A DNA stretch of 64,000 bases, taken from assembly GCF_030384885.1 (NCBI RefSeq), contig NZ_CP128613.1; one strand, 5' to 3'. The translations under genes were made by a program, and so were the position numbers. The notes under the pieces are model-generated. The model did no database searches. It worked only from the letters and a program-made list of their open reading frames with translations, and was not told the origin of the DNA. Every line of letters starts with the position of its first letter. Within the stretch, counting starts at the first letter, position 1. Below, piece by piece: positions 56,165 through 58,050 of this stretch. This stretch comes from Escherichia coli (GTDB lineage Bacteria > Pseudomonadota > Gammaproteobacteria > Enterobacterales > Enterobacteriaceae).

Positions 56165-58050
56165 GTGAGTAGGCCACCGGAACCTCCCCGACAGCCTCTC
56201 GCAGAACCGTACGTGAAACTCTCGCTTCATACGGCTCCCGTCAGGCAAACGCGCTTCCTGGTCCTGCTTTCCAGTGGGCAAACAACTCCGGCTTCTCTTT
56301 TGACAGCCTTTCCATTAGCTGACACGCCTTCGTCTTTCTATACCGCAGGGTTTTATATTTCTTTCTCGCCCACGCAATCAGCGTCAGATTAATATATCTG
56401 CATACTTTCTTCATCGCTGATTTGTGGTATCTCGCGTAATAATTCAGCCACCCCGATATTATCGGATTCAGCCACTTCGCAATATCTTCGAGACTCATCT
56501 CCACCCTGCGTCTGATCCACAGTTTCCTGAGTTTTCCAATCATGCCTTTCTGCGCAAGGTTACTCGCCGCCGGGCTGAAACTCGTAAAGAGGTTTCCCCG
56601 CCGGTGGTTGCGTGCTCTTCGCGCTCTGAACGTATACCCCAGAAAATCAAACTGCACTGTTTCATGGTTCGCCTGTCGTTCGCTGTCTTTGCAGTAAACT
56701 ATTTTCGTTTTCTCCGGATGTAATTCCAGTCCACATTCCTGAAAACGTTTTGCCAGCTTATTCAGTAATTCCTCTGCCTGTTGTTTACTGCCACAATGAA
56801 TTAATCCATCATCTGCATAACGGCACCAGGGAATTTCCGGATAATGTAACGTCAGCCATTTATCAAACACATAGTGCAGAAATAAATTCGCCAGTACCGG
56901 GCTGATGACTCCACCCTGTGGCGTACCTTTATTTCTTTCCTTCAGTGTTCCATCCGGCATCTGCACCGGCGCTGTCAGCCACCGGCGAATAGACAGTCTT
57001 ACCCATTTATCCGCACAATGTTTATCTACTGCCCTGAGTAATAAATCGTGGGGGATATTATCGAATAACCCTTTAATATCAAACTCAAGACACCAGTCGT
57101 ATTGCCAGCAACGTTTTCTGGTGACTGCTATTGCATCCAGCGCTGATTTTCCATGCCGGTATCCGTATGAATCATTCAGGAAATAACGCTCCACTAATGG
57201 TTCAAACGTTACCAGCACCGTCATCTGCGCTATTCGATCGCTTACTGTCGGTATTCCTAAAAGTCTTTTGCTGCCATCCTTCTTCGGAATTTCCACCGCA
57301 CGCACTGGCGGCGGCATCCAGCTTCCCGACGATAACCTGTTCCAGATTTTGTACAGATTTCCTTTCAGATCCCGCTCAAAATCTTTCAGCGTCTGGTTAT
57401 CCACTCCGGCAGCTCCGGCATTCGCCTTTATCCGCCGGTACGCTTCCACCACATGCAATTTACTGACCTGAAACGGTTTTGTCTGTTCACACACAGCCTC
57501 CTCCTGCCTACAGTTGGGCTGTGATGCAGACTGCCCGACGCTGTCCCTTCGCTCCACGTTCATTACAAACGCTTCCTCACTACTACGAACAGCTCTGCCC
57601 CGGTTTCGCACATCGATACTCTCATACTCATAATTTCGGTTATTTGTATTTCTCTCTTGACATTGCGACGACCGGTTCCCGTAGTTCCTGCAAAGAGCCC
57701 GATACAGCGTCATGCCTGCTATACACCGGACACCATTCACGCAGCATTCGGAATTCACCCGTAAATTAATCCCGGCGGTATCATGAAACCTCCGGTTTTG
57801 ATGTCACTTAGGACTAACGACGTTTCAACACAGGTTCGGGTTTACTCATCTCACTGTATCTCACATAGGATCAGATCTCGTCTGATCGTTCCCCCTGCGC
57901 TCACTACCATGGCTCTTTACCACAGCAGCCGGGGTTGTTTGGGACCGACTTCCGACAGCAGATCCCGGTGGGCCTGCCACCATCTCTTCACAAGCTTATG
58001 CTTATTACATGCAAAACGTCCCGTTTTGCATCTTTGTGCCTACGGCACAC
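56165..58050 (-). mobile_element. Group II intron (about 1.9 kb) encoding a reverse transcriptase/maturase; limits approximate
   Basis: Domain V-like 34-mer at 56204-56237 (sense GAGCCGTATGAAGCGAGAGTTTCACGTACGGTTC) directly after the RT stop; candidate 5' end GTGTG at 58050-58046; candidate 3' end ...CCTAC near 56169. Confidence 0.7.
56241..57563 (-). CDS. Group II intron reverse transcriptase/maturase (about 440 aa from Met at 57563; ORF is open to 57758)
   Basis: RT domain blocks (KPFQVSKLHVVEAYRRIKANAGAAGVDNQTLKDFE; GIPTVSDRIAQ; RYADDGLIH with the YADD catalytic motif) and a C-terminal maturase region. Confidence 0.85.
   Translation of the reverse strand: MNVERRDSVGQSASQPNCRQEEAVCEQTKPFQVSKLHVVEAYRRIKANAGAAGVDNQTLKDFERDLKGNLYKIWNRLSSGSWMPPPVRAVEIPKKDGSKRLLGIPTVSDRIAQMTVLVTFEPLVERYFLNDSYGYRHGKSALDAIAVTRKRCWQYDWCLEFDIKGLFDNIPHDLLLRAVDKHCADKWVRLSIRRWLTAPVQMPDGTLKERNKGTPQGGVISPVLANLFLHYVFDKWLTLHYPEIPWCRYADDGLIHCGSKQQAEELLNKLAKRFQECGLELHPEKTKIVYCKDSERQANHETVQFDFLGYTFRARRARNHRRGNLFTSFSPAASNLAQKGMIGKLRKLWIRRRVEMSLEDIAKWLNPIISGWLNYYARYHKSAMKKVCRYINLTLIAWARKKYKTLRYRKTKACQLMERLSKEKPELFAHWKAGPGSAFA

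Follow-up and report, generated by a model that had tools for sequence, protein, structure and literature searches.

The class D group II intron E.c.I9 in the left inverted repeat of an ISAs1/H-rpt element at the RhsE locus of Escherichia coli

The 64,000-nt stretch of Escherichia coli DNA analysed here (contig NZ_CP128613.1; hereafter, the window) almost certainly carries, from 58050 to 56164 on the minus strand, a full-length copy of E.c.I9, a mobile group II intron of bacterial class D (IIB3-type, RmInt1-like) that is inserted after nucleotide 15 of the left inverted repeat of an ISAs1 element and that, by analogy, would operate through an RmInt1-like mechanism. The architecture of the ribozyme and the domain content of the protein were read directly in this analysis, as were the exact point of insertion and the intron's identity as E.c.I9 (Table 1). 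The intron is real but ordinary. It was previously catalogued as E.c.I9, class D, a name of the Zimmerly group II intron database that was adopted by Leclercq & Cordaux 2012 (PMC3522654), and annotation routinely names its protein ltrA, which is the existing PGAP label. The discovery value is small, and the value for annotation lies in the exact boundaries and strand, in the 440-aa protein and in the recognition that the intron cuts the ISAs1 element of the RhsE locus in two, 15 nt in from the left end.

Table 1. Features of the intron and of its target element (window positions).
Feature	Position	Strand	Basis or remark
Complete group II intron E.c.I9	56164..58050	(-)	1,887 nt; 5' GUGUG ... 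CUCACU 3'; empty-site comparison
5' ribozyme part: domains I-III and start of domain IV	57564..58050	(-)	consensus fold, 7 class D relatives
Domain I segment, Rfam RF01999 (group-II-D1D4-2)	57864..57981	(-)	93.1 bits, E 2.5e-18
Candidate EBS3 A, intron position 208	57843..57843	(-)	sole alignment column complementary to exon +1 in 5/5 relatives; tentative
Probable EBS2 UCCU	57810..57813	(-)	same alignment column as EBS2 pairing in relatives; 4 bp, weak
EBS1 CAUGAU	57780..57785	(-)	terminal loop of covarying domain I hairpin
Intron-encoded protein gene, 440 aa	56241..57563	(-)	RT domain, X/maturase domain, short C-tail; no DNA-binding/endonuclease domain
Domain V, GAGCCGUAUGAAGCGAGAGUUUCACGUACGGUUC	56204..56237	(-)	34 nt, AGC triad, 2-nt bulge; part of RF00029 match
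Domain VI and 3' end	56164..56201	(-)	RF00029 alignment and direct sequence reading
5' exon: 15-nt left inverted repeat CAGGGAAAGATCACG of ISAs1/H-rpt	58051..58065	(-)	contains IBS1, IBS2
3' exon: remaining ISAs1/H-rpt	54888..56163	(-)	129-nt leader, transposase ydcC, right inverted repeat
Transposase ydcC	56034-54898	(-)	378 aa
Right inverted repeat of ISAs1/H-rpt	54902-54888	(-)	part of 3' exon

Ribozyme and Intron-Encoded Protein

The first-pass annotation had called a group II intron from the letters alone and had proposed covariance-model searches and folding of domain I as checks, both of which bear the call out. Domains V and VI matched Rfam RF00029 (62.8 bits, E 1.2e-10) and a segment of domain I matched RF01999, a family also matched by RmInt1 and four other relatives; as both matches exceed the Rfam gathering scores (40 for RF00029 and 36 for RF01999) and have such low E values, they are not due to chance. 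Moreover, the consensus fold of domains I-III over seven class D relatives comprises 117 pairs, 66 of them with compensatory changes, and 97.1% of the cells are paired vs 36-43% when the partners are slid, while 0 of 500 shuffles reached the observed values, as befits conserved multi-helix domains with covariation. The other hallmarks of a group II intron are a 5' end of the GUGYG form (GUGUG at 58050-58046), domain V, and a domain VI whose bulged branch-point A, at 56170, lies 7 nt before the 3' splice site (position -7). Domain V had been noticed as a 34-mer directly past the stop codon of the open reading frame, and it does start 3 nt after the TGA.

The longest open reading frame, of 505 codons from a GTG (57758..56241, minus strand), had been described with its reverse-transcriptase blocks and maturase tail, and these are present, including YADD (RYADDGLIHC). 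However, the protein itself is about 440 aa long, the ATG at 57563 being probably the true start. This ATG is preferred because it is the PGAP start in a 99.8%-identical record and because the alignment with the RmInt1 protein does not begin until residue 29 of the 440-aa form; the extra 65 codons of the longer frame overlap ribozyme domains I-III. Pfam domains of the protein are RVT_1 (E 6.9e-42) and GIIM (E 3.9e-13) only, and the Pfam search found no HNH/En endonuclease domain, the protein ending ~30 aa past GIIM. An RT with YADD and an X/maturase region encoded within domain IV is the arrangement of group II introns, and the group II RT/maturase equivalog TIGR04416 scored 424.9 bits vs a cutoff of 300. 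The frame is free of internal stops, with a pN/pS of 0.21 in comparison with the ATCC 8739-type copy and, thus, the protein has evolved under purifying selection.

A protein without an En domain is a trait of class D (PMC3035460). The assignment to this class draws on the missing C-terminal En domain and on the grouping of protein and ribozyme with class D members, which was made by identity, RF01999 and the published listing. Identity to the RmInt1 protein on pRmeGR4b is 57%.

Boundaries and Insertion Site

The ends of the intron, and hence its size of 1,887 nt, were set by comparison with uninterrupted target sites, CAGGGAAAGATCACG^TAACGCTG. This uninterrupted site (CACG^TAACG) was read directly in strain 7/2 and was found in ~310 E. 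coli genomes, a count that comes from 54-of-55-nt matches because the query had one extra T. The insertion is precise relative to the uninterrupted allele, and the predicted ligated-exon junction joins AAGATCACG directly to TAACGCTG. The size of about 1.9 kb and the GTGTG 5' end that had been estimated earlier both held, but the low coordinate given then, 56165, is one base short. An alternative 3' end at AC (56165) was considered together with a TT-containing target and was rejected, since the TT form was absent from all genomes searched, the ATCC 8739-type copy (L002), which has a different 3' exon, shows the same ...CACU followed by an exonic A, and 1,887 nt agrees with the published length. 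The intron terminates in CU rather than in the usual AY; the class D relatives examined all end in CC and, thus, the CU end looks like a class trait.

Identity was 99.8% to strain 2013C-4282 and 96.2% to ATCC 8739 (query including flanks), and the near-identity to the ATCC 8739 reference, with the same 1,887-nt length and the same junctions, identifies the intron as E.c.I9. The published coordinates of E.c.I9-1, NC_010468 2411599-2413485, describe a 1,887-nt class D intron 'in a Rhs region' (Leclercq & Cordaux 2012, PMC3522654, supplement). This ATCC 8739 copy occupies the same RhsE / pptA-yddH-nhoA locus and likewise follows the 15-nt left repeat of ISAs1. However, it differs from the window copy by ~4% and in its EBS1 loop, the body of ISAs1 is lost to a deletion 69 nt past the intron in the ATCC 8739-type locus, and a further orphan Rhs toxin/immunity module is present upstream.

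The intron sits inside the ISAs1/H-rpt element, exactly after nucleotide 15 of its left inverted repeat and in non-coding DNA, and it is oriented like the transposase and the Rhs genes. Homology to the K-12 ydcC element starts at 58065, and homology among four different flanking contexts starts at CAGGG. The comparison of the RhsE-ydcC locus showed no intron in K-12, in agreement with the first-pass annotation.

Exon Recognition

In each relative, the loop column assigned as EBS1 is complementary to the 5' exon of that same intron, with 7 bp in RmInt1 and in the introns of loci L007 and L009, and the EBS2 column pairs with the 5' exon at about -15 to -9 in RmInt1, L007, L008 and L009, as read from alignments in both cases. 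In the window, the corresponding IBS1 (58056-58051) and IBS2 (at about 58064-58060) both fall within the 5' exon, and domain I carries an EBS1 and a probable EBS2 complementary to it. The probable EBS2 pairs with AGGG or GGGA in the inverted repeat. A plain complementarity scan had pointed to CGUGA at 57741 as EBS1 and UCUUU at 57696 as EBS2, but these were rejected, since their columns lack exon covariation and EBS1 would wrongly precede EBS2.

EBS1 of the window copy pairs with IBS1 AUCACG at five of six positions, with an A.C mismatch at -2 that arises from a G267A change. The aligned loop is CGUGAU in copies L003, L013 and L017, which match IBS1 at 6/6 positions, and GAUGAU in L002. A GATCATG target, which would be perfect for CAUGAU, was searched for, and the best full-length matches carry one mismatch; the EBS1-IBS1 mismatch is, therefore, real. 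It may lower the splicing or homing of the window copy.

Proposed Mechanism and Related Introns

RmInt1, an intron of Sinorhizobium meliloti, belongs to IIB3/class D and has no En domain; its homing is into ssDNA at replication forks (PMC3035460; PMC5894124). By analogy, a precursor RNA of E.c.I9 would be made by read-through transcription from the Rhs or the IS side, the 440-aa RT/maturase encoded in domain IV would bind the RNA and aid lariat splicing, the resulting RNP would recognise the inverted repeat of the IS via EBS1/EBS2/EBS3-IBS pairing, and copying would be primed by the nascent lagging strand. Besides the En-less protein and the RF01999 match, both introns share the 5' GUGUG, the 3' ...CUCACY and the habit of homing into an insertion sequence, and their lengths are similar (1,884 nt in RmInt1). 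However, the host of RmInt1 is different and its target is an internal site of ISRm2011-2. Moreover, splicing and lagging-strand-biased homing were experimentally shown for RmInt1, whereas the window copy is known from its sequence.

Another class D intron of S. meliloti, RmInt2, inserts into terminal inverted repeats, namely both the left and the right one of the IS ISRm17 (PMC5894124). The E.c.I9 lineage resembles it, being found in both the left (window) and the right (L017) inverted repeats of ISAs1 elements, although IS family and host differ and the dual-repeat use by E.c.I9 rests on one right-repeat copy. In E. coli UMN026, E.c.I2 is a class D intron of 1,891 nt in the Rhs IS (PMC3522654) and, thus, targets the same ISAs1/H-rpt element as the window intron. 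The 1,891-nt intron of locus L007 is probably E.c.I2; it matches RF01999, its protein is 60% identical to the window protein and its nucleotide identity is ~71%. In contrast to the window intron, which lies in the inverted repeat, it interrupts the transposase reading frame (ENKLHWRLD^VVMNEDD).

Distribution and Mobility

A search for other copies, also proposed in the first-pass annotation, found full-length E.c.I9 in 83 of 5,426 complete E. coli genomes, whereas ~2,400 genomes have only short 5' stubs (159 or 193 nt). The published occupancy of its target, the Rhs IS, is 14% (Leclercq & Cordaux 2012, PMC3522654), and empty target sites remain numerous in E. coli. All but one of the full-length E. 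coli copies examined lie at the same RhsE locus, which fits vertical descent over active spread; one of the RhsE-locus copies is on a plasmid that carries the chromosomal pptA-yddH-nhoA segment. The exception is in strain 2013C-4282, where a second full-length copy (L017), 99.68% identical to the window copy, occupies the right inverted repeat of another ISAs1, at CAGGGAAAGATTACG^AAAGC. Its presence in a near-identical strain suggests, at the level of sequence, recent mobility. Thus, the lineage has probably been mobile recently and the copy at the window locus itself looks vertically inherited, while the latter may still splice or move.

There is also a fair, though less than even, chance that the E.c.I9 lineage in this strain background is currently or very recently mobile, homing into both inverted repeats of ISAs1/H-rpt and acting as a brake on H-rpt transposition, and that the relics in ~2,400 genomes are traces of ISAs1 re-invasion. 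If so, the intron would enter the left repeat in the transposase orientation (window) and the right repeat in antisense (L017), and both copies would point with the replication fork in the K-12 orientation, which would put both on the lagging-strand template, as reported for RmInt2 in ISRm17. Since the GC skew of the window is about 0 over positions 1-52000, this orientation would be deduced from K-12 synteny and the textbook positions of oriC and dif. Moreover, H-rpt transposition would be braked by the intron parting the 15-nt repeat from the IS body, and the combination of solo repeat, intron stub and intact IS would represent ISAs1 re-invading disarmed copies.

There is a substantial, if less than even, chance that the window copy is instead an immobile relic, a once-mobile E.c.I9 that is now vertically inherited with RhsE and no longer splices or homes efficiently. 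The G267A change in EBS1, which mismatches its own 5' exon, is in line with this, as are a non-synonymous change at codon 336 (L vs R or S) unique to the window copy, the frameshifted proteins of the sister copies L003 and L013 and the genomes that retain just a stub. Copies at the RhsE locus in different strains differ by ~4% and, thus, the insertion is old. Nevertheless, the protein frame is intact and under purifying selection, the catalytic domains are intact, the L017 copy occupies another site in a strain that is nearly identical, and a single A.C mismatch, as we infer, may be tolerated.

The choice of targets by endonuclease-less group II introns and their interplay with insertion sequences is the field to which E.c.I9 could be of interest, in particular for the additional copy found in the other inverted repeat, for its polymorphic EBS1 and for the stubs that so commonly stand beside intact IS copies.

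Alternative Readings of the Locus

The intron was originally placed between the Rhs immunity region and ISAs1, in non-coding or pseudogene DNA; the non-coding location stands, but the site is 15 nt inside the left repeat of the IS. Homing into free-standing intergenic DNA, with the immunity gene on one side and the IS on the other, is, accordingly, very improbable, even though the transposase ORF and an immunity-like ORF (58202-58600) do physically flank the intron. Taken together, the 15 nt before the intron and the 1,276 nt after it make up a 1,291-bp element, the length of the K-12 element (L005 6673-7963), that is co-linear with the K-12 ydcC H-rpt and has both inverted repeats, which places the intron within the IS. 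Moreover, the same junction is found despite differing upstream contexts (L002 and L016), and the published target of E.c.I9 is the Rhs IS (Leclercq & Cordaux 2012, PMC3522654); the empty-site and K-12 comparisons refute the intergenic reading.

An RT from a retron, a diversity-generating retroelement or a defence system (Drt/UG) is the least credible source of the gene, since profile searches of the protein gave the sub-threshold scores expected of any RT (Drt3a, 77 bits, cutoff 200; Drt2, 58.9, cutoff 390; retron St85, 53.7, cutoff 235), whereas the Rfam matches, the TIGR04416 score above its cutoff and the Pfam domains refute it, with a GIIM maturase domain in the protein, ribozyme domains on both sides of the ORF and an insertion that is precise relative to empty sites.

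Identity and Class of the Intron

The minus strand of 56165-58050 carries a group II intron, as the first-pass annotation had proposed from sequence, with Rfam matches in domains I and V/VI and an open reading frame recognized by TIGR04416, RVT_1, and GIIM. The annotation is refined here in strand (minus), exact end, protein length, and the target within an IS repeat. The intron has already been catalogued as E.c.I9, of class D. With short flanks it shares 99.8% identity with E. coli 2013C-4282 and 96.2% with ATCC 8739, in both of which PGAP labels its gene "ltrA: group II intron reverse transcriptase/maturase". 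Once the query's 64-nt 3' flank is subtracted, the ATCC 8739 match has the published coordinates of E.c.I9-1 (NC_010468 2411599-2413485, minus strand, 1,887 nt, class D, "in a Rhs region"; PMC3522654 supplement) and, thus, the window intron is a variant copy of E.c.I9. Leclercq and Cordaux (2012) listed one full-length E.c.I9, in ATCC 8739, and reported that another intron, E.c.I2, targets the Rhs IS, with the E.c.I9 target "at another position" of that IS (PMC3522654). What is added here is mildly new and confined to a right-repeat copy, a polymorphism of EBS1 (exon-binding site 1), and the anatomy of very common stubs.

Membership in class D is well supported by sequence comparison, since it rests on protein identity, a common Rfam subfamily, and the published "D" label. 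The intron protein of Sinorhizobium meliloti GR4 pRmeGR4b (419 aa; 1,884-nt intron) is 57% identical to the window protein, and this intron and four other relatives match the Rfam D1-D4 subfamily of the window intron. pRmeGR4b carries a single copy of RmInt1 (PMC5894124), a IIB3/class D intron without an En domain (PMC5894124; PMC3035460). A related class D intron in E. coli KE47 (L007 950-2840; protein 60% identical), probably E.c.I2, lies inside an ISAs1-family transposase frame (ENKLHWRLD^VVMNEDD), and another on a plasmid of Methylobacter sp. YRD-M1 (L008 445-2331; protein 63.5% identical) also interrupts such a frame (...HWGIEN^QLHWVLD), which suggests a class D clade specialized on ISAs1 elements across distant gammaproteobacteria.

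Boundaries and Insertion within ISAs1

Both intron flanks were joined and compared with other E. coli genomes. The empty site, CAGGGAAAGATCACG^TAACGCTG, is directly seen in strain 7/2, and the matches of about 310 genomes over 54 nt of a 55-nt joined-flank query bearing one surplus T are read as the same uninterrupted site; the TT form of the target occurs in no genome. This comparison makes the limits of the insert unambiguous: GUGUGCC...CUCACU, 58050 to 56164, 1,887 nt. The predicted size of about 1.9 kb and GTGTG 5' end hold, and the lower bound of 56165 was one base short. The 3' end is CU, not AY, and as RmInt1 and four further relatives end in ...CACC or ...UGCC, this looks like a class trait.

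The first-pass annotation correctly associated the intron with ISAs1 but placed it between this element and the Rhs immunity region. It lies instead inside an ISAs1-family element, directly after the 15-nt left inverted repeat, because CAGGGAAAGATCACG (58065-58051) is the inverted repeat of CAGGGCAAGATTACG (54888-54902; 13 of 15 positions match), and 58065-58051 plus 56163-54888 make a 1,291-bp sequence collinear with the ydcC H-repeat element of K-12 (L005 6673-7963, 1,291 bp). Moreover, the sequence shared among four differing upstream contexts begins exactly at CAGGG. Transposition of this ISAs1 copy is probably impaired, since its 15-nt repeat is parted from the IS body by 1.9 kb. The intron has the orientation of the transposase (56034-54898) and the Rhs genes, and no terminator-like site was found on the minus strand between it and the upstream immunity-like ORF, so read-through transcription into the intron is plausible. 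Host gene function is independent of splicing, as originally stated.

Ribozyme Structure and Encoded Protein

Coordinates of ribozyme features in the window intron
Feature	Coordinates	Strand	Details
Domain I segment	57981-57864	-	Rfam RF01999 group-II-D1D4-2, 93.1 bits, gathering score 36, E 2.5e-18
EBS1 CAUGAU	57785-57780	-	pairs with IBS1 (intron-binding site 1) AUCACG
Domains V/VI	56239-56164	-	Rfam RF00029, 62.8 bits, gathering score 40, E 1.2e-10
Domain V	56237-56204	-	34 nt, starts 3 nt past stop codon
Domain VI bulged A	56170	-	7 nt from intron 3' end

The covariance models recovered domains I and V/VI, including the 34-mer already recognized as domain V after the stop codon, and detected no further Rfam families in 50000-64000. 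The sole Rfam match in the rest of the window is a SECIS_3 element (36682-36740, minus strand, 84.3 bits), an ordinary one, presumably within a formate dehydrogenase gene. The fold was examined by aligning the first 480 nt of the window intron with the ATCC 8739-type copy and five relatives (RmInt1, the E. coli intron in an ISAs1 ORF, and Methylobacter, Marinobacter, and Clostridium introns; proteins 56-64% identical). The RNAalifold consensus comprises 16 helices and 117 pairs, 66 of them with compensatory changes, compared with 6-15 double-change pairs in slid controls, in which the 3' partners were moved by 1-3 columns; standard pairs occupy 97.1% of cells (36-43% in the controls), and none of 500 shuffles matched the observed pairing values. 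Given this covariation for domains I-III and the covariance-model matches for V and VI, these domains show no failure to fold.

The longest ORF of the intron (57758..56241, minus strand) has 505 codons from a GTG and contains the YADD motif, as first described. It scores 424.9 bits (curated cutoff 300) against TIGR04416, the NCBIfam model for a group II intron reverse transcriptase/maturase, and has Pfam matches to RVT_1 (E 6.9e-42) and to GIIM, the group II maturase domain (E 3.9e-13), whereas retron and defence-RT models score far under their cutoffs, which upholds a group II maturase over a retron RT. Pfam detected no endonuclease domain in this ORF. The protein itself is likely to be about 440 aa rather than 505, because the PGAP start in the 99.8%-identical record is an ATG equivalent to 57563 (440 aa), the RmInt1 protein alignment begins only at residue 29 of this form, and codons 1-65 of the longer ORF run over ribozyme domains I-III. 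The ORF and catalytic core of the window copy are intact, with one amino-acid change, at codon 336, unique to the window.

Target Recognition

EBS1 was identified as the terminal loop of a covarying hairpin that, in every intron compared, is complementary to the intron's own 5' exon (7 bp in RmInt1, L007, and the relative L009; 6 bp in L008). In the window, 5 of 6 EBS1-IBS1 positions are paired, with an A.C mismatch at -2. The loop (window 57780-57790; intron positions 263-271 in L002, L003, L013, and L017) is polymorphic among E.c.I9 copies. CAUGAU is common to the window and the 2013C-4282 RhsE locus (L001); two further E. coli copies (L003, L013) and the second 2013C-4282 copy (L017) have CGUGAU, a perfect match to AUCACG; and the ATCC 8739-type copy has GAUGAU at the aligned position, for which the K-12-type repeat variant GATCATC would be a perfect partner. 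The 5' exons of E.c.I9 copies also vary (...ATCACG, ...ATCATCG, ...ATCACCG), and the target variant GATCATG is absent from the 5,426 genomes searched. EBS2 is probably UCCU (57813-57810), which pairs over 4 bp only with AGGG or GGGA of the repeat and whose column covaries in relatives, and a tentative EBS3 candidate lies at 57843. The recognized target, about -14 to +1, is essentially the IS inverted repeat itself.

Possible Recent Mobility and Mechanism

A search for junctions of the right inverted repeat with the intron 5' end gave one clear case, a second 1,887-nt copy near nfrA/nrfB in 2013C-4282 (L017 4516-6402; NZ_CP027579.1 about 2,064,724-2,066,610), the genome that also holds the 99.8% RhsE match. 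As its exons show (5' CAGGGAAAGATTACG, 3' AAAGCCCGC), it follows nt 15 of the right inverted repeat in another ISAs1; it runs antisense to the transposase gene and splits the last codon of that gene. It is 99.68% identical to the window intron (6 differences), and its CGUGAU pairs with AUUACG via one G.U wobble. This second copy suggests recent retrohoming and the use of both IS ends.

In K-12, ydcC lies on the plus strand and nfrA on the minus strand; by synteny, both copies would share one direction on a single replichore. If replication direction is taken from the textbook positions of oriC and dif, the intron sense strand would be the lagging-strand template; GC skew in the window gave no informative signal. 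This orientation has been reported for RmInt1 and RmInt2, class D introns of S. meliloti, the latter using both ISRm17 inverted repeats (PMC5894124). The sequence shows a class D ribozyme, an RT/maturase that lacks an endonuclease domain, and precise insertion into an EBS-recognized IS inverted repeat. By analogy with RmInt1, the protein could assist lariat splicing, the lariat could reverse splice into single-stranded target DNA at replication forks, and nascent lagging-strand DNA could prime cDNA synthesis.

Distribution and Degraded Copies

Of 5,426 complete E. coli genomes, 83 contain full-length copies, defined as covering at least 80% of the intron; those inspected (L001, L002, L003, L013) lie at the RhsE-ydcC-pptA-yddH-nhoA locus, as does that of plasmid pECTOK-001_1, on a carried chromosomal segment. 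Divergence among RhsE-locus copies reaches about 4%, with 109 columns variable across four of them, and comparison of the window and ATCC 8739-type copies gives the protein gene a pN/pS of about 0.21, together indicating that the insertion is old and the protein is kept by purifying selection. The L003 and L013 proteins are frameshifted, so some E.c.I9 copies have decayed since insertion.

Some match occurs in 2,565 of the 5,426 genomes, mostly as 5' stubs that are 193 or 159 nt long and about 100% identical; matches of about 71% identity in 169 genomes are taken to be of the E.c.I2 type. The stubs (about 2,400 genomes) span intron positions 1-193 (window 58050-57858) or 1-159 (58050-57892), as at L015 3485-3720 in O157:H7 FRIK2533 and L016 3485-3675 in BL21. 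Orthologous 193-bp fragments have been described in O157, IAI1, SE11, and E24377A, and 159-bp ones in BL21/REL606 (PMC3522654 supplement). The BL21 stub lies at a different locus (yafV), which implies an independent insertion. Stubs are not internal deletions, since a solo left inverted repeat plus the intron stub abut a complete ISAs1 whose left repeat is uninterrupted; one possible origin is that ISAs1 re-inserted into a copy bearing the intron and that recombination followed. The O157 stub locus also has a tandem partial repeat upstream.

Surrounding Locus

Directly upstream of the IS repeat, at 58066-58150, is a short orphan fragment of an Rhs core end (...YNWHRYYNPGQG...). ATCC 8739-type loci have an extra 870-bp orphan Rhs C-terminal/immunity module between this fragment and the repeat (L002 5085-5956), and their ISAs1 body is deleted from 69 nt past the intron into pptA. 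Compared with 2013C-4282, about 2.5 kb has been lost from within the RhsE core gene at about 59978-59980 (minus strand; L001 1667-4170 missing). What is left is an N-terminal ORF (60314-59967) whose frame differs from that of a 507-aa C-terminal ORF (60124-58601); hence, the main Rhs gene in the window is a pseudogene. Between the right end of ISAs1 and yddH lies an AT-rich 211-aa hypothetical ORF (54048-54683, minus strand), a position that pptA occupies in K-12 and several other strains; the arrangement of 2013C-4282 is the same as that of the window (WP_032184207.1).
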